From the sequence record MW250785: 64,000 bases of DNA. The stretch is one strand, 5' to 3'. Position numbers and translations under genes: made by a program. The notes below the pieces were generated by a model. That model was not told the origin of the DNA, ran no database searches, and worked only from the letters and a program-made list of their open reading frames with translations. Position 1 is the first letter of the stretch. The number at the start of each line of letters is the position of its first letter. Shown here in pieces: positions 24,561 through 53,342 of the stretch. The stretch comes from Escherichia phage UPEC03.

Positions 24561-24701
24561 TTACCCCAAACAGATTTTACATTTACAGAGAGGACATTCC
24601 GCCTCTTTAACGCGCAAGCGCTTTGTTGCTGTTCGCTTCGCTGTGTTGTGATCATACACATGCAAACAGCGATAACAGATCACCAATCGTTTAGCCGTCA
24701 T
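24561..24701 (-). CDS. Small zinc-ribbon protein (46 aa; below track cutoff)
   Basis: MTAKRLVICYRCLHVYDHNTAKRTATKRLRVKEAECPLCKCKICLG. Has CxxC...CxxCxCxxC. The ATG overlaps the upstream stop by 11 nt. Confidence 0.5.
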   Translation of the reverse strand: MTAKRLVICYRCLHVYDHNTAKRTATKRLRVKEAECPLCKCKICLG

Positions 24702-25164
24702 AACCACCACCGCAACGAACATCACCTTCAATGAACAGTTCGCGGTTATCTCTCAGGAGATTGTATTTCTTTTCGAGTTCCGGCCCGAATGCGTCCGCGT
24801 CGTCATACCAGTCATAGTTATAACTTCCGGTTTCCTCGTCGTATTCCGGTTCGTCGCCGCACTCATTGAAGTGAACGATTTTAACATCATCCAGATTCAG
24901 TTCTTTCAGCTTGTCCCAGATGCGGGTTATTTCGACGCTATTACATCCGAACGCTTCCAGTGTGATTGTACCGTCATCATGTACTTGAGGAACACCCCAG
25001 CGCGGACGATGATGAATTTCGGTGATCATATCCATCAGCGATTCAACGTTTGACTCACCGTAAATCTTTGCAACTTCCTGTTCTTTACCAGGGCGGACAA
25101 GTCCTATCCCGATAATGAAACTACTGCTTGAGCTATTGCTCACGAACCCAGAACGGATCTTCAT
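24691..25164 (-). CDS. SNSSSSSF-motif protein, paralog B (157 aa)
   Basis: N-terminus MKIRSGFVSNSSSSSFI is identical to that of the ORF at 28599-29111. Acidic/aromatic C-terminal half. ATGA-coupled. Confidence 0.75.
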   Translation of the reverse strand: MKIRSGFVSNSSSSSFIIGIGLVRPGKEQEVAKIYGESNVESLMDMITEIHHRPRWGVPQVHDDGTITLEAFGCNSVEITRIWDKLKELNLDDVKIVHFNECGDEPEYDEETGSYNYDWYDDADAFGPELEKKYNLLRDNRELFIEGDVRCGGGYDG

Positions 25165-26016: not shown

Positions 26017-28263
26017 TTAGATTTTGACTTCTTTTTCTTCCAGGACGATTTCACATTCGAATGATGTGGTTTCCCAGACTTTCCAGAAATCGGATGGAAT
26101 ATTATCTTCTTTCGGAAGAATATCTTTTGCAGCGATAGAAACTTTGGTTTCTTCGAAGTCCAGATCCGCGAACCATGCATGGGCTACTACAACACCGTAC
26201 ATTACGCGACTTAAACGGGCATTCAGTTTACGGACTTCCTGAATCGTTGCCTTTGTCTGCTTATCAAGATACTCGACTACCTGATCTTTGTCAAGCGCAT
26301 CCAGTTCAGATTTCACCTGATCGTAAGCCCACAGGATAATCAGGTCGCCGTTGTTCAGTTTCTTCTTACCTTCGTCACGTTTCGCGACGGTAGCCGCTAC
26401 AGCAGGAAGGGAGGAAACACCCTTGACTTTCACGTTCAGTTCTTTCGACATGTAAACATCAGTCGATTCTGTGCGCTCAACCTTCGGAGAGAACCCGTAA
26501 TCACGAATATCCTGTTCAGACAGCCATTCACCCGCTGCATCACCAAAGCGCTGTTTCAGCCCTTCTGCGTTGCGCAGTCCGATCGCGTTGTCACGGAAGA
26601 ACTTCATAACCTTCTGACGGCCTTTCAGGATTTCCAGACGCACGTTATCAGTCACGAACTCTTTACCGCTTAACCCGCGAGTCATGCCACGGTTAACCAG
26701 AGGCAGAGAGGTAAAGTCTACCAGTACCGACATACGGTCATCACCGATTTTTTCCAGCGGCTTGATAGTCAGGCCAGAAGCGCGAAGGTTTTTCAGTGTC
26801 GGAATATCAGTTTCCAGCGGCAGAACTTTCACGTTCACGATACCATCTTTAACGATGGTGAAGTTACGCACCTGCTTAGTTTCGATTTTTTCCGGCAGAC
26901 CGAATTCTTTCTGTTTGCTTTCTGGGATAGTCACATACCCTTCCAGATCCGTGTTGATGGAAATGTTAGGACGGGAACTGTTACCCACCAGATGTTTAAC
27001 CGATACTTTGGTTGTGGTCTGGGTAAATTTCGGTGTCCAGACTTCATGCGCTACCATTTGCGCCGCCAGTGCTTTACGTTCTTCTGGGATTGCAGCGTTT
27101 GCGATCTGTTCGGTCAGTTGATCCAGTGTATCATCTTCTTTCTGTACAGTCTGACGGCCTGTGCGGTTATACGCCCAGTGCTCAGAAGACAGGTCGATCA
27201 CTGTGTCAGTTTGTGCCAGCAGTTCGAGCGCATCAACCAGAGTGAACGCGTTTTCGTCTGGAACCATGTTGTAATCAATACCATCAACGAAACGCTGTGA
27301 TGGATCTACAACAGCCTGTGCAATCAGGTCTTTCGCGTTGGAGTAGTCCTGTTTGGTAAAGCAGTTGTCATACGCCTTGATCAGACGGACATCACCCAGC
27401 TTTTGAAGCACTTTCCATGCCAGATCAGGGTTCATTGTGTGCAGTGCATGATAAAGCACGACATACAGAACTTGCTGTTCGCTGGCGATGTTCGGATCGA
27501 ATCCGTCAACATCATTAATCGCGTTTTCACCCAGCGCCCAGATGTTTTTGATGTGTTCTGGAACTAGCACAACACCGTTTGCAGCGTTCAGGACATACAC
27601 GCACCCTTCGTCCAGGTAGATCGCATGGGTAGCATCAGCAACTTTGACTTCGATACGCGCGGAAGTCTGCGCGGTGATGATTTCGTTAAATGCTGGTTCG
27701 TATGCGTCGAAACCTTCAACGAATTTGTGCAATGCGTTGGTTGCTTCTGCCATTTTTTCCAGCAGAGGACGGTTTACATAATAACCGTATTCCAGGAACG
27801 CGATACTGTTGAAAGTCAGTGGCAGAACCGCACACGCTTTCAGAATATCATCGGTACGCCAGCAGTTATCATAACCATCAGTCAGGAAGATCAGGCTGTT
27901 CAGGTTGCCGTTTTCAGATTGCAGATCGGTAGCGATTTCCGCAGCCAGATTCAACGGCTCAACAAAGCCAGTACAACCCGTAGGTTTCAGGTAACGGTCG
28001 ATAGCCGCGCAGATGTTAGACAGGTCAGAGACATTGCTAACCTTCTCACCACGGAACACCGTGCCGTAATCGCCTTTGCTGGAGAAGTACAGGATCGAAA
28101 CGGTGTCATCCTGTTTAACCAGACTCGCCAGATTTGCTTTCAGGTGTTTACGGATCTTAGGCAGTTCGTTGTACATTGAACCGGATACGTCACACACGAA
28201 AACGTGGTTTGTCGGGGTTGGCTTCGATACAGCGTTTTTGAATTCGATATTTGTGATTGACAT
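26017..28263 (-). CDS. von Willebrand factor A (vWA) domain protein with complete MIDAS motif
   Basis: 748 aa. N-terminal vWA with DVSGSM (DxSxS), TGCTGF (Thr) and IFLTDG (Asp). About 550 aa of unassigned C-terminal sequence. Confidence 0.8.
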   Translation of the reverse strand: MSITNIEFKNAVSKPTPTNHVFVCDVSGSMYNELPKIRKHLKANLASLVKQDDTVSILYFSSKGDYGTVFRGEKVSNVSDLSNICAAIDRYLKPTGCTGFVEPLNLAAEIATDLQSENGNLNSLIFLTDGYDNCWRTDDILKACAVLPLTFNSIAFLEYGYYVNRPLLEKMAEATNALHKFVEGFDAYEPAFNEIITAQTSARIEVKVADATHAIYLDEGCVYVLNAANGVVLVPEHIKNIWALGENAINDVDGFDPNIASEQQVLYVVLYHALHTMNPDLAWKVLQKLGDVRLIKAYDNCFTKQDYSNAKDLIAQAVVDPSQRFVDGIDYNMVPDENAFTLVDALELLAQTDTVIDLSSEHWAYNRTGRQTVQKEDDTLDQLTEQIANAAIPEERKALAAQMVAHEVWTPKFTQTTTKVSVKHLVGNSSRPNISINTDLEGYVTIPESKQKEFGLPEKIETKQVRNFTIVKDGIVNVKVLPLETDIPTLKNLRASGLTIKPLEKIGDDRMSVLVDFTSLPLVNRGMTRGLSGKEFVTDNVRLEILKGRQKVMKFFRDNAIGLRNAEGLKQRFGDAAGEWLSEQDIRDYGFSPKVERTESTDVYMSKELNVKVKGVSSLPAVAATVAKRDEGKKKLNNGDLIILWAYDQVKSELDALDKDQVVEYLDKQTKATIQEVRKLNARLSRVMYGVVVAHAWFADLDFEETKVSIAAKDILPKEDNIPSDFWKVWETTSFECEIVLEEKEVKI

Positions 28264-28599
28264 TTAAATTTTCTCGTATTTGAATTTTTCTAAAATTTCG
28301 TTAACTTTATTGCTTACTGCTTCGACTGTACGATCACACCCGAACTTACGCGCCAGGAGTTCAACGTATTCATCCATCGTAGTGAGTTTGGATTCTGCAA
28401 CGTCAAACGCAAGCGCATACATTACTGGATTCAATACTCGAACGATTTGGAGAGTATACTCGTTCAGTTCAAAACGTTCAAGATATTTTCGCAGAGAAAA
28501 TACATCAAACGGTGCGGGGCGATCCTGGCTAAAGGGGATCGACTCCCCTAATGCATAGCGAGGCATAACAACACAGACTTCGGTTTTTAACTTATCCAT
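28264..28599 (-). CDS. Hypothetical protein (111 aa)
   Basis: TGATG coupling upstream; TAA-ATG abutment with the vWA gene. Confidence 0.6.
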   Translation of the reverse strand: MDKLKTEVCVVMPRYALGESIPFSQDRPAPFDVFSLRKYLERFELNEYTLQIVRVLNPVMYALAFDVAESKLTTMDEYVELLARKFGCDRTVEAVSNKVNEILEKFKYEKI

Positions 28600-29111
28600 C
28601 AGTGATGACTCTTTGATGTGTGTTCAAGGTTACGGAAGATGTTTCCATGTTCCAGTTGAGTTCCGATCGGGCCGCATTCATCGGAGTACGTGAATTCATA
28701 GATAAACACGCCGTCCTGATTGCCATACTTCGTGTTGTACTCTTCATACAACCACATTTTGATCAGAGCGTCTTTCTCTTCTGTGTCCAGATCGTACCAG
28801 TCTCGCCCGTCATACGCAAGCGCAATTTGAGGGTTTGAACGGTAGCGGGTTTCTGCGCTTTCTTCGGTTTCCCAGTCATAGCGTTTATCGTCGTAGAACG
28901 ATTCAAAGCTATTACCCAGATGACCGCCTAAGTCACGGTGAACATGATTGACCACTTCTTCCGCTGTTAACGGAGGATTGTAGTAACCGCAGTTCGGAAC
29001 GCAATCACCCATCATTTCGCGCAGGTTGTCGATATTAGTCGGATCTTTCGGGAACCGGACGATGAAACTACTTGATGAACTGTTGCTCACAAAACCAGAA
29101 CGGATTTTCAT
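28599..29111 (-). CDS. SNSSSSSF-motif protein, paralog A (170 aa)
   Basis: N-terminus MKIRSGFVSNSSSSSFI. Acidic/aromatic C-terminal half. ATGA-coupled. Confidence 0.75.
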   Translation of the reverse strand: MKIRSGFVSNSSSSSFIVRFPKDPTNIDNLREMMGDCVPNCGYYNPPLTAEEVVNHVHRDLGGHLGNSFESFYDDKRYDWETEESAETRYRSNPQIALAYDGRDWYDLDTEEKDALIKMWLYEEYNTKYGNQDGVFIYEFTYSDECGPIGTQLEHGNIFRNLEHTSKSHH

Positions 29112-47257: not shown

Positions 47258-47686
47258 TTATACTCTTTTAAGGTTAGTTTTGCTGGCTTCGATCCAGCTT
47301 ACTTGGTTAGATCCAATATCACCCAGACATACAGTTGTATGACTAAATGTGTTCGGTAAAGAAACACCATCAGGAGATAACAACAAATCATGTACACTTA
47401 CGCTGGTTGCATACAAATAACCACCGGACGTATACAGTGTTTTTATGAAATCATATGAATCGTTGGGCCACTTGAAACGGTATTTCTGGTTCCAGAGTTC
47501 AACTTCATGCACATCATATTCATCGAACAGGGGATCGTTGCCCTTTGTCGCTTCGTAAAGCGCACCGCGCCATTCAACTAAATCCGCTTCGATATCACTT
47601 ACACAAAACTCTTCTTTTGCGCTCAGTTTATCAAGCATCATTTCAATAGTGCGGATAGCCATGCTTAATTCACGATCGAGTTTCAT
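47258..47686 (-). CDS. Hypothetical protein (142 aa)
   Basis: ATG 47686 is ATGA-coupled. The track start is an upstream non-ATG extension. Confidence 0.55.
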   Translation of the reverse strand: MKLDRELSMAIRTIEMMLDKLSAKEEFCVSDIEADLVEWRGALYEATKGNDPLFDEYDVHEVELWNQKYRFKWPNDSYDFIKTLYTSGGYLYATSVSVHDLLLSPDGVSLPNTFSHTTVCLGDIGSNQVSWIEASKTNLKRV

Positions 47687-48045
47687 ACAATACCCTCTTC
47701 TTCGAGCACTTCCCAGATCAGGCGATCCAGGTGCATCAGGTTCCACATAACGGAGTCATACGAACCCAGCGAGCGGGAGTAAATCACTCCCCATGAACGA
47801 TAAGCCTTTTGGAATGATTCAGCACTGTTTTCATCGTGCGGCATATCGTCACCCGAAGCGATCAGCAGTTTCAGAACCATCAGGCTATTGAGTGCCTTTG
47901 GTGTGAATTCCTGTTCGCTTAACTTCATCGCGTAGCGTTCGATGATCGCGATTGACTTCGGATCTTTAATACGCCCATCTGTACGGCGCGTTTTAAACGC
48001 TCTCATTAATTCATCAACTACGGCGGTACACTTCATATGCTTCAT
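47683..48045 (-). CDS. Hypothetical protein (120 aa)
   Basis: ATG 48045 preceded by AGGAAAAGG. Confidence 0.5.
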   Translation of the reverse strand: MKHMKCTAVVDELMRAFKTRRTDGRIKDPKSIAIIERYAMKLSEQEFTPKALNSLMVLKLLIASGDDMPHDENSAESFQKAYRSWGVIYSRSLGSYDSVMWNLMHLDRLIWEVLEEEGIV

Positions 48046-48391
48046 CCTTTTCCTGTACAGACATCCGATTATAGCGGATCTCTTCGCGCTGTTCAACTTC
48101 TCTCACTGCTTCGGCTTTCTTTTCAGCGGTGAGTATGTGATGTACTACAGCGTTTCGGATTTCCCAGAGATATTCAATCATCTGCATATCTTCAACGGTG
48201 TGGTAGCCTTTCATATCACATTCAAATACAATTTCATCGCGTTCTGCCATTGCCACCTGTGCGGTAGAAGGACAAATAACCATTCCAGAGTATTTTTCAA
48301 TCAACGATTCCAGTGTACGCGGTTTTGCTGGAATGTCAATAGATACCGGAACCATTCGCATCGTTGAATCATTATGGGATTGGTAAATCAT
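48014..48391 (-). CDS. Hypothetical protein (125 aa)
   Basis: TGATG-coupled upstream. Confidence 0.55.
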   Translation of the reverse strand: MIYQSHNDSTMRMVPVSIDIPAKPRTLESLIEKYSGMVICPSTAQVAMAERDEIVFECDMKGYHTVEDMQMIEYLWEIRNAVVHHILTAEKKAEAVREVEQREEIRYNRMSVQEKDEAYEVYRRS

Positions 48392-48684
48392 CAGAATGTG
48401 ATCTCCGCAAACTGCATTCTACGCTCAATCGCATGGATAGCGTTATCACGCTGTTCTTTGTTTTCATATCCAGCCCAGGTAATCGGAGTTGAACAGATCA
48501 GGTGAAAAGTGATTGCTGGGTGTCTCTTCCCTTCAACAACGATTGTTGCATCATCTTCGATCCAGGTTACGTGATCCAGATTCACCGGATAGTTTCTTAC
48601 GGTAACAGTTTCACCAACCATAGGCGACACGTCCAGAATATCACGATCACGAACGTATGATTTAATACGAGATACGATTAACAT
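48391..48684 (-). CDS. Hypothetical protein (97 aa)
   Basis: TAATG-coupled to the radical SAM gene. Confidence 0.55.
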   Translation of the reverse strand: MLIVSRIKSYVRDRDILDVSPMVGETVTVRNYPVNLDHVTWIEDDATIVVEGKRHPAITFHLICSTPITWAGYENKEQRDNAIHAIERRMQFAEITF

Positions 48685-49838
48685 TATTTCAACTCCACTG
48701 CATATACATCGGTTTCAGGGGCTTTGTGTACGCGCATATCTTTACCACATACCGCATAAGCCGGACAGTTACGGCAACCGTTATGATCCTTGTTGCCCGT
48801 CAGTTCTTTACGGAACTGTTTTGTTTTCGGGTGTTCCCAGATATCCTTCACAAAATCTTCGGCTTCCAGAACATCCAGACCTTCTTCCCAGCCACCTTCA
48901 ACCCAACGTTCGGTAAACGAGCAAGGGAAGAACTGACCACGTTCATTAATGTAAGAGCTAAACATCGTCGCTTCACAGTCTTCGGCGTATTGCTTGTACT
49001 GTTCGAAGTTCGGGTGTCCCTCCATCGCTTCAACGAAAGCGGGGGCTGAACAGCTATCGAATCCAAATCCTACACCAGAATCGAGGCAATATTCAACAAG
49101 TTTTTTATATTGTTCGCGGGTAACGGTGTCCCAGTTCTTACCGCGTCCTTTTTGTTTCAGTCCCAGGAACACGATCGCGTTGACTTGTTTCAGGCGCGGA
49201 TCATTCTTCACGGCATCAACCACGTTAAACGCATCATCATAGGTTTTCGAGCTAACCATGAAGTGAAGGTTGATTTGCTGTTGTCCGGCTTCTGTCAGGT
49301 TCGCTACTGAGTCGAAAGCGACATCAAAACCAGCGTGTTTATAAACCGATACCGCAACAGCCCCAGCAACCGCCGCTAAACGCGCTGCAACGTCTTTTGA
49401 TACGTCAGCAATGGTAAGGTTCGGTACAATGCCTTTAGAACGCGCATACGCCATCATATCGAACATATCAGGGTTTGTTTGCCCCTGTGCATCAGCACCG
49501 AGTGCGCATTGAGTCAGCCAGGGCATTTTGTCGATGATTTTTTTGAAGTTGGCAAGATCCATGTTGAACCCGTTAGGGTTATTGGACTTGTAGCAGAACC
49601 CGCAGAGTTTACCAGCGGGACCATTACATTTGGTAGTGATCTCAACATCCAAGATTTCTGGGAATGGGGCATAGGTAGGATCAGTTTCGAACGATGTTCC
49701 CCAGCGAGCAAACTCACCAGTTTTAACGTTGAAATTGTAGTTGTACCAATTAGAGCGAGCGAAGCGCATATTACCCTGCTGGTAAATCATTAGCGAAGGG
49801 GCTTTCATTACAGTCTGTGCGCGGTCAATAATATCCAT
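48684..49838 (-). CDS. Radical SAM-like enzyme with atypical CX7CX2C cluster and SPASM/twitch-like C-terminal Cys motif
   Basis: 384 aa. ITTKCNGPAGKLCGFCYKSN has the T..CN..C..CY context with a 4-residue insertion. C-terminal GCRNCPAYAVCGKD (CxxCx5C). Confidence 0.6.
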   Translation of the reverse strand: MDIIDRAQTVMKAPSLMIYQQGNMRFARSNWYNYNFNVKTGEFARWGTSFETDPTYAPFPEILDVEITTKCNGPAGKLCGFCYKSNNPNGFNMDLANFKKIIDKMPWLTQCALGADAQGQTNPDMFDMMAYARSKGIVPNLTIADVSKDVAARLAAVAGAVAVSVYKHAGFDVAFDSVANLTEAGQQQINLHFMVSSKTYDDAFNVVDAVKNDPRLKQVNAIVFLGLKQKGRGKNWDTVTREQYKKLVEYCLDSGVGFGFDSCSAPAFVEAMEGHPNFEQYKQYAEDCEATMFSSYINERGQFFPCSFTERWVEGGWEEGLDVLEAEDFVKDIWEHPKTKQFRKELTGNKDHNGCRNCPAYAVCGKDMRVHKAPETDVYAVELK

Positions 49839-52503: not shown

Positions 52504-52812
52504 TTAATCGAATTTTTCTGGCAACTGGTCTACAAGTGCTTGAGTTTGATGAAGTTCTTCACTCAATTTATCACGATAATGAACCAATTCGCGGGTTCTT
52601 GATGCGGAATAGCTAATGAGTTTATCAGCGGTAGCGGTGTAACCGTAACCAGCACACGCGATTTCCAGTTTTGCGTTATCGCCGTTAGGTACGCGGATAT
52701 GAGCATACGCCAGCAAGTTTTTAACCGCTTGCAACAGTTCATGATCTTCTTTGCCGATGATAAACTGGTTTGGTTCTGCTGAATCCATATACAGTTCTTC
52801 GTCTTTGTTCAT
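52504..52812 (-). CDS. Hypothetical protein (102 aa)
   Basis: ATGA-coupled to the DUF262 gene. Confidence 0.55.
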   Translation of the reverse strand: MNKDEELYMDSAEPNQFIIGKEDHELLQAVKNLLAYAHIRVPNGDNAKLEIACAGYGYTATADKLISYSASRTRELVHYRDKLSEELHQTQALVDQLPEKFD

Positions 52813-53342
52813 TTTGCAGCCTTATACATTTCCAGGACGCGGTTCATGTGATCTTGAGATTGAGGCACACCCGCGAAGTTCAGTTTGATGAAGAATTCCA
52901 GACGATCCTTTTTGGTGCATTCATCCAGCCCCAGGGCAGGTAATGAAATGTTTTCAAAGGCTCGTTGTTCGTGTCGTGGTATTTCGTCCCAGAACAAACG
53001 GGAACCGTCCGGCATAGGAATCCCAATTTCACCTTCGTAGACTTTGATAATCGTCGTCAGGCGTTGTTTGCCGTCGATCACTTCTACCCAATGGGTTTCG
53101 TTGAACTGACTATCAACCGCGATCGCAATGATACCGCAAGGGAAACCACTGATCAGGGTAGTCAGAAACGCATCTTGCTCTTTCTGCGTCCACACATAGG
53201 GGCGCTGGTAAGATGGATTCAGATCCAGATCTTTATTCTTCCACCAATGCAGATAACTCCCAACCATGATCGCGTGATCGCGACTGCGAAAAGTTAACTG
53301 ATCGCGGATACGGTTATGAACCGGAATATCATCTTTAGACAT
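52809..53342 (-). CDS. Stand-alone DUF262 (ParB/GmrS-like NTPase) domain protein
   Basis: 177 aa. NPSYQRPYVWTQKEQDAFLTTLISGFPCG and VIDGKQRLTTI (DGQQR motif). No DUF1524/HNH nuclease half. Confidence 0.7.
   Translation of the reverse strand: MSKDDIPVHNRIRDQLTFRSRDHAIMVGSYLHWWKNKDLDLNPSYQRPYVWTQKEQDAFLTTLISGFPCGIIAIAVDSQFNETHWVEVIDGKQRLTTIIKVYEGEIGIPMPDGSRLFWDEIPRHEQRAFENISLPALGLDECTKKDRLEFFIKLNFAGVPQSQDHMNRVLEMYKAAK

Follow-up and report, generated by a model that had tools for sequence, protein, structure and literature searches.

In the SPASM/twitch branch of radical S-adenosylmethionine (SAM) enzymes, the SPASM domain is marked by the seven-Cys motif CX9-15GX4C-gap-CX2CX5CX3C-gap-C, and the twitch domain is a truncated form that holds one cluster (PMC6231123). 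SuiB, which forms the Lys-Trp cross-link of streptide (PDB 5v1q/5v1t), has a winged-helix recognition element for ribosomally synthesised and post-translationally modified peptides (RiPP recognition element, RRE), a CX3CX2C cluster loop and a full seven-Cys SPASM domain with two clusters, and its substrate is a short leader-core peptide. SkfB and BtrN have twitch domains; the former, which also has an RRE, makes a Cys-to-C-alpha thioether, and the latter oxidises an aminocyclitol. In Haft's surveys, a SPASM/twitch enzyme beside multi-copy, motif-bearing open reading frames (ORFs) is reportedly the pattern of a maturase and its precursors. Here we compare these systems with a gene for a predicted radical SAM enzyme in Escherichia phage UPEC03 (sequence record MW250785), of which a stretch of 64,000 nucleotides (the window) was analysed. 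Sequence comparison makes it fairly probable that this enzyme is a phage-specific maturase that modifies a 16-residue N-terminal tag, carried in the window phage by two predicted substrates.

Results

Genomic coupling of the tag and the enzyme gene

The features on which the comparison rests are the following.

48684..49838, minus strand: gene for the predicted radical SAM enzyme, ATG start, 384 aa; homologs RB43ORF169c and GAP161_155; PHROG 7293
49593..49628, minus strand: cluster motif C71-NGPAGKL-C79-GF-C82 (CX7CX2C), from the translation, Cys conservation, loop-length spectrum and intein sites
48747..49052, minus strand: putative auxiliary-cluster region, with C263 in the linker, C288-X12-G301-X4-C306 and C355-X2-C358-X5-C364, from Pfam, NCBIfam, the alignment and the BtrN match
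49659..49838, minus strand: N-terminal domain of ~60 residues, predicted all-beta, a candidate tag-binding domain, from conservation and the model
28599..29111, minus strand: tagged protein of 170 aa, sub-family B, PHROG 7397, predicted substrate
29064-29111, minus strand: tag of the 170-aa protein, MKIRSGFVSNSSSSSF, from the translation
24691..25164, minus strand: tagged protein of 157 aa, sub-family A, predicted substrate
25117-25164, minus strand: tag of the 157-aa protein, MKIRSGFVSNSSSSSF, from the translation

The window has two tagged genes and no more. Both are minus-strand genes, separated from that of the enzyme by 20-24 kb, and they represent the recurrent partners of the enzyme, which the sequence-only reading did not mention. 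The candidate substrate peptide of this phage is MKIRSGFVSNSSSSSFIV. The tag consensus, M-K-x-R-x-G-F-V-S-N-S-S-S-S-S-F, spans 16 residues at the extreme N-terminus. Conservation was measured on 452 distinct tags, with the following values.

Positions 2 to 7: K2 98%; R4 99.8%; G6 96%; F7 98%
Positions 8 to 11: V8 97%; S9 94% (T, A and G tolerated); N10 99.8%; S11 100%
Positions 12 to 16: S12 99.8%; S13 92%; S14 87%; S15 98%; F16 95% (the rest mostly Y)

An unbiased tag profile gave cleanly bimodal scores. Both AGY and TCN codons are used at every Ser position, and the tag is therefore under protein-level selection; this synonymous mix rules out a DNA or RNA element. Among 1.84 billion cluster representatives, ~23,000 protein clusters (50% identity) bear the tag, from which ~0.0003 tags would be expected by chance in a 12-kb locus.

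The neighbourhoods of enzyme relatives were sampled at 80 viral loci, 72 of them outside Pseudotevenvirus, and all neighbouring ORFs were clustered. At 67 of the 72 distant loci, the enzyme gene has 1-12 tagged ORFs, often in tandem, no more than 6 kb away. All 235 of these tags are on the strand of the enzyme (235/235) and 193 are downstream of it, at a median distance of 1.5 kb. No other recurrent gene family was found across 200 enzyme loci. For the reverse test, the back-translated tag was scanned in IMG/VR, where at least 120 stretches with a median length of 7.7 kb matched. An enzyme homolog is present in 45 of the 120 listed stretches, and in 19 of the 38 that measure 10-20 kb; at least 12 further tag stretches come from contigs that carry the enzyme elsewhere. 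Dispersal of the kind seen in the window also occurs in contig IMGVR_UViG_3300037400_006466, where tags at 127-133 kb and 185 kb lie on either side of the enzyme (~156 kb).

Of 50,697 records of cultured phages, 173 encode the enzyme, 171 of these being Pseudotevenvirus-like, and the two tagged proteins occur in 173 and 174, in the same genera. This co-occurrence is uninformative because all three are core genes of one genus. A search of 185,579 species genomes gave only 9 enzyme loci, all on contigs of metagenome-assembled genomes (MAGs) except for one contig of a Flagellimonas assembly, and the enzyme-tag system is thus essentially phage-borne. The exception, L202 (NZ_JBHSCL010000010.1, 178,077 bp; Flagellimonas marina), carries a 96%-identical enzyme copy, is as long as a complete Pseudotevenvirus genome and is probably phage contamination of that assembly. 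The literature and profile libraries that were searched gave no description of the enzyme or of the tag motif, for which neither Pfam nor NCBIfam has a model; papers on marine T4-like phages mention only unexplained or other radical SAM gene cassettes, and the pairing appears to be undescribed.

Tag variants in the two enzyme clades

Variation in the tag follows variation in the enzyme. Clade-1 enzymes, which include that of the window and are at least 37% identical to it, pair with tags that have Gly at position 6 and Ser at position 9; at one clade-1 locus (L068), Ser6 and Ala9 are found in 4/4 tags. The clade-2 enzymes (L105, L118, L133, L192 and L212-L254), gathered by a separate search, are ~27% identical to the window enzyme, with a CX7CX6C cluster motif and a richer C-terminal motif, CX2CX3CXCX3C...C. 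Thr9 is present in all 133 of their adjacent tags. A sub-branch of clade 2 (63-69% identity) has Asp6 together with Thr9 in 48/48 tags, and the main branch has Gly6 in 85/85. Paralogs within one genome have unrelated bodies and the same tag variant, as would fit a genome-specific reader, namely the enzyme, that recognises the tag.

Two motif-based ideas about the chemistry fared poorly against these variants. A glycyl-radical-like R-x-G-F motif is ruled out, position 6 being Asp or Ser in the groups just described. The three-residue cyclophane of FxS type, which here would be F7-x-S9, is weakened since position 9 tolerates Thr, Ala and Gly, and the FxsB, XyeB and GrrM models gave no match to the window enzyme. 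Position 9 is itself an unlikely modification site on the aligned tags, because Ala and Gly are tolerated there.

Cysteine motifs of the enzyme

The sequence-only reading had described a radical SAM-like ORF at 48684-49838 with a CX7CX2C loop, and translation bears this out: the minus-strand ORF starts with ATG and encodes 384 aa, and residues 71-82 are CNGPAGKLCGFC, with the spacing C71-X7-C79-X2-C82. Met11 is a possible alternative start that is used in many related records and leaves this finding unaffected. In an alignment of 42 sequences with identity down to 46%, no variation is seen at C71, C79, C263, C288, residues in the G301 region, C306 or C358; C82 is kept in at least 90% of the sequences and C355 in almost all. 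The three cluster Cys on which the radical SAM assignment had been staked are thus retained in homologs, and the Cys pattern, judged from this alignment, is not due to chance.

The loop is real but is not a defining oddity. Among 165 homologs, 121 have CX7, 13 have CX12, the rest range over CX5-CX17, and 15 have the canonical CX3CX2C. On these comparisons CX7CX2C is one state of an insertion-tolerant loop (CX3 to ~CX17), which would entail no different cluster chemistry. One homolog with the canonical loop (P0092) has a precomputed match to the Pfam family Radical_SAM, PF04055. The breadth of the spectrum also means that motif-based genome mining would miss most family members.

In some homologs (L189:1316-3854, L139:8585-10331, P0066, P0068 and P0069) a split intein lies exactly between the positions of F81 and C82. 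In these fractured genes the first ORF closes with ...C-x-x and then the N-terminal intein half, C[LS]PAG..., and the second begins MKIK... and continues to ...HN|CYK(S/G)N. A free-standing HNH endonuclease gene (1901-2893) separates the intein halves in L189; only ~275 nt lie between them in L139. Insertion immediately ahead of the third cluster Cys would point to functional importance of this site.

The C-terminal motifs quoted in the sequence-only reading (DSCS, EDCE, FPCS and GCRNCPAYAVCGKD) are all present and correspond to C263, C288, C306 and C355/C358/C364, the last three within GCRNCPAYAVC. The sole Pfam match is SPASM (PF13186), which scores 24.5 bits over residues 288-359 and so exceeds its gathering score of 21.5. 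NCBIfam TIGR04085 scores slightly under its cut-off (24.6 versus 27), and other NCBIfam matches are weak and partial, to radical SAM/SPASM families. The complete seven-Cys SPASM motif is not found in the window enzyme, where the X3C and the final C are lacking; only closer relatives retain C364, and most homologs end shortly after C358. The arrangement expected of a twitch domain is present: a Cys before the beta-hairpin (C288), one after it (C306) and a Cys pair after helix alpha2' (C355/C358). An additional invariant Cys, C263, is located in the linker. A sequence-profile search of the PDB returned only BtrN, whose cluster-binding C-x-x-C aligns to C355/C358. Because CX12GX4C and CX2CX5C are kept, the remainder of the motif is lacking and most relatives stop after C358, the C-terminus is best described as twitch-like, and it likely binds one auxiliary Fe-S cluster and possibly more.

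Predicted fold and enzyme class

The AlphaFold2 model of the enzyme has a mean predicted local distance difference test score (pLDDT) of 92.9 and a predicted template modelling score (pTM) of 0.90. Its closest structures are the peptide and protein maturases SuiB, SkfB, anSME and PqqE, and Foldseek places the complex of SuiB with its precursor peptide first (E 8e-10). On the model, the enzyme belongs structurally to the SPASM/twitch branch of radical SAM maturases, within no named subfamily. Together with the above-threshold SPASM match and the conserved Cys, this upholds the earlier assignment to a radical SAM enzyme with a SPASM/twitch-type C-terminus, which we regard as very likely; Fe-S binding and SAM cleavage are predicted. 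The anSME family models of NCBIfam and Pfam gave no match to the window enzyme. It also lacks the hallmarks of the glycyl-radical activases PflA and NrdG (~250 aa with an N-terminal cluster motif, and an essential substrate Gly), in line with the statement that it is not NrdG-like. More than 1,600 relatives are present in public protein sets, and its own family, PHROG 7293, has no annotated function.

The N-terminal domain has conserved residues S29, N33, F36, G41, W46, G47 and D53. Strands are predicted at 9-13, 16-21, 24-28, 33-37 and 43-46, with no helical bundle, and the domain motif is retained in clade 2 at 27% identity. Tag binding is a candidate role for this all-beta domain.

Tagged proteins

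The AlphaFold2 model of the 170-aa tagged protein (pLDDT 82.7) has disordered residues 1-10 (pLDDT below 50), after which the fold opens with a strand (13-20) paired to two C-terminal strands. The N-terminal peptide is conserved and predicted to be unstructured and the folded bodies behind it vary, as would suit a handle recognised by another protein. The body of this protein has conserved D144 and E154-H155-G156-N-x-F159-R160 and a nearly invariant H170. Sequence searches with it returned only 34 relatives, and its fold gave no PDB match with E below 1. The 157-aa protein ends in ...GGGYDG, with GAGRNG in relatives. Pfam gave no match for either protein. Residues 77-148 of the 157-aa protein match PHROG 132, "head-tail adaptor" (E 4.5e-9), a label used in records PP889458.1 and PQ657798.1; given the size, context and tag of the protein, the label is doubtful.

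Beyond the window, the loci encode 335 distinct tagged proteins, whose bodies were grouped into 117 families. Body types include those with the GAGRNG/GGGYDG C-terminus, those with YSDxxG...EHGNIFRNLxH...HH at the end, a zinc-ribbon type and many singletons. For 42 representatives, Pfam gave only single sub-threshold matches; PHROG 7397, whose function is unassigned, matches 28 of the 42, through the tag only. No NCBIfam family or PDB sequence matched the tagged proteins. The tag profile returned only noise from PDB sequences and only short fragments without names from a set of 5.8 billion proteins, and a zinc-ribbon-type tagged protein had no match in cultured phages. Four ORFs (P0217, P0218, P0221 and P0225) contain two complete tagged proteins each, the second tag being again Met-initiated; these could be gene-caller read-through, stop-codon recoding or true fusions.

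Genome setting

The window comes from a T4-like phage of the RB43/RB16 group (Pseudotevenvirus), and its enzyme region is 96% identical to Klebsiella phages, including phiKp_1, and to Cronobacter phage GAP161. In the latter, GAP161_155 is annotated as "putative radical SAM protein" and the surrounding genes are all "hypothetical". One further feature adjoins the enzyme gene.

47258..48684, minus strand: four small ORFs, translationally coupled, that follow the enzyme gene; PHROGs 11417, 7705, 1451 and 7538

These ORFs overlap or abut one another as the sequence-only reading had noted, are annotated in GAP161, and each matches a PHROG without known function. The implied partnership with the enzyme is not supported: they occur at 7-9 close Pseudotevenvirus loci and at 0/72 distant ones, and are not conserved partners. 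They are lineage-specific and lie outside the conserved system.

Both tagged genes of the window flank a gene for a 748-aa protein (26017-28263, minus strand) with an N-terminal von Willebrand factor A (VWA) domain (Pfam VWA, VWA_2 and VWA_3; PHROG 2426). It lies with them in one overlapping gene string and is no recurrent neighbour in other phages. Two similar GC-rich stem-loops (51035-50999 and 24260-24225, both minus strand) are each followed by GTTATATTAC and overlap a sigma-70-like promoter match (TTGTCT or TTGCCT, 17-nt spacer, TATATT); they resemble the promoter-early stem-loop cassettes of T4-type phages. Promoter and terminator scans around the enzyme and tagged loci gave counts at chance level. 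A 177-aa ORF at 52809-53342 (minus strand) contains ...VIDGKQRLTTI..., a motif reminiscent of DUF262/ParB-like nuclease domains.

Discussion

The strand-consistent clustering of tagged ORFs around the enzyme gene and the clade-specific tag variants make it likely, from sequence comparison, that the enzyme modifies the tag. A broader proposal, towards which we lean less firmly, is that a portable 16-residue tag with the core R4, F7-V8 and N10-S11-S12 occurs on more than 20,000 unrelated phage protein families and that one enzyme installs a new post-translational modification on it.

Several observations weigh against modification of the tag by this enzyme. Synteny and co-variation are the only support for an enzyme-substrate relation. 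In the window the tagged genes are not adjacent to the enzyme gene, and about half of the tag-selected stretches show no enzyme gene, which can be attributed to the shortness of these stretches. PF04055 gave no match to the window enzyme at E<=1 in a Pfam scan, probably because the lengthened loop breaks it. A PqqD-like winged-helix RRE is seen neither as a Pfam match in residues 1-60 nor in the model. The small-molecule enzymes BlsE (19.0), viperin (17.8) and MoaA (17.1) are also good structural neighbours. Finally, the radical cross-links described so far usually engage Cys, Trp or Tyr; the tag has no Cys, no Trp and no conserved Tyr, and precedent therefore does not reveal its chemistry.

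One alternative is that the enzyme acts on a small molecule, a nucleotide or a nucleic acid, as viperin, MoaA, BlsE or QueE do, and that the tagged proteins are unrelated neighbours. Nucleotide or nucleic-acid modification and antiviral-nucleotide detoxification had indeed been put forward for the gene beside peptide maturation. Of these roles peptide or protein maturation is favoured, given that the model resembles peptide and protein maturases most closely and that no gene of nucleotide or sugar metabolism recurs near homologs; a small-molecule substrate would also leave unexplained the same-strand tags in 67/72 loci and the tag variants that track enzyme clades, and we regard it as quite improbable. 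The tag might alternatively be a docking or recruitment peptide for the N-terminal domain, with the real substrate elsewhere, or carry a stable radical generated in the manner of an activase. Co-variation indeed shows recognition rather than chemistry, and the tag is disordered and at the extreme N-terminus. For a tag radical one could point to the vague likeness of R-x-G-F to the glycyl-radical motif, R-V-x-G-[YF], but the clades with Asp6 and Ser6 exclude a glycyl radical at this position. As for docking, up to 12 tagged proteins per locus and 117 unrelated body families fit many substrates better than regulators, and a SPASM/twitch enzyme with adjacent multi-copy, motif-bearing ORFs is the classical maturase-precursor pattern (PMC6231123). 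Taken together, docking and a tag radical seem to us unlikely.

A third possibility is that the tag serves as a signal for sorting, packaging or turnover, independently of the enzyme, the two being associated only through shared, hyper-variable early-gene islands. T4-type phages do carry short N-terminal capsid-targeting sequences on internal proteins, and small early-type ORFs surround the tagged genes. Chance co-residence, however, cannot yield same-strand tags in 235 of 235 cases beside one enzyme family on contigs of 7-460 kb, nor clade-specific tag variants, at the expected tag density per locus given above, and such a signal is in our judgement highly improbable. That the four small downstream ORFs are the functional partners or substrates of the enzyme can hardly be credited: although these ORFs run into or adjoin the enzyme gene and each other and persist in relatives within Pseudotevenvirus, they are confined to those close loci and none bears the tag.

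If the enzyme does modify the tag, a possible sequence of events is as follows. The flexible tag would thread into the enzyme, perhaps docked as a strand on the N-terminal domain. Reductive cleavage of SAM would give a 5'-deoxyadenosyl radical, which would take a hydrogen atom within the invariant N10-S11-S12. The auxiliary cluster could then accept a second electron, for a net two-electron oxidation; this role of an auxiliary cluster has been proposed for anSME and BtrN (PMC6231123). Our preferred guess, by analogy with anSME/AtsB and BtrN, is that a serine side chain is oxidised to yield a formylglycine-type aldehyde, with carbon-carbon or ether cross-linking within the tag, or epimerisation, as alternatives; any one specific chemistry is doubtful at best. 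The modified tag might give many unrelated early phage proteins a common chemical property. An arms-race function is suggested by the number of tagged paralogs at a locus (as many as 12), by the extreme diversity of their bodies and by the early-gene location, and the proposed tag-and-modify system would probably have a role in host take-over or counter-defence.

Should modification of the tag be borne out, thousands of "hypothetical" phage proteins would gain a first handle as clients of one maturase, and the system would be among the largest enzyme-substrate families in the virosphere. None of the radical SAM cross-links characterised so far matches a Ser/Asn-rich substrate that lacks Cys and Trp. 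Enzymologists would be interested in a new reaction on a portable 16-mer, or in oxidation of one of its serines to an aldehyde, and such a system might also provide a genetically encoded conjugation tag. The system is present in the cultivable E. coli, Klebsiella and Cronobacter phages RB43, RB16, KP15 and GAP161, with one enzyme gene and two tagged genes.

Comparison with known systems

The enzyme shares extra residues between the first two cluster Cys with QueE and other lengthened-loop radical SAM enzymes. In QueE of Burkholderia multivorans (CX14CX2C), the subject of work by Dowling et al. in 2014, residues can reportedly be inserted there with function kept. SuiB is 13-16% identical to the window enzyme and differs from it in the features set out at the beginning: the phage enzyme has an all-beta N-terminal domain, a CX7 loop, a partial SPASM motif and, as predicted substrates, N-terminal tags on proteins of 90-390 aa. 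SkfB and BtrN, which share the twitch domain, are not phage-encoded and have no link to a serine-rich tag. The anSME/AtsB enzymes target (C/S)-x-P-x-R within sulfatases of one fold and have two fully ligated auxiliary clusters, whereas the predicted targets of the phage enzyme have many unrelated folds. RRE-dependent RiPP maturases have adjacent genes for short precursor peptides with a conserved leader and a variable core; here the adjacent multi-copy genes share an N-terminal 16-mer, but they encode proteins of 90-390 aa with folded bodies.

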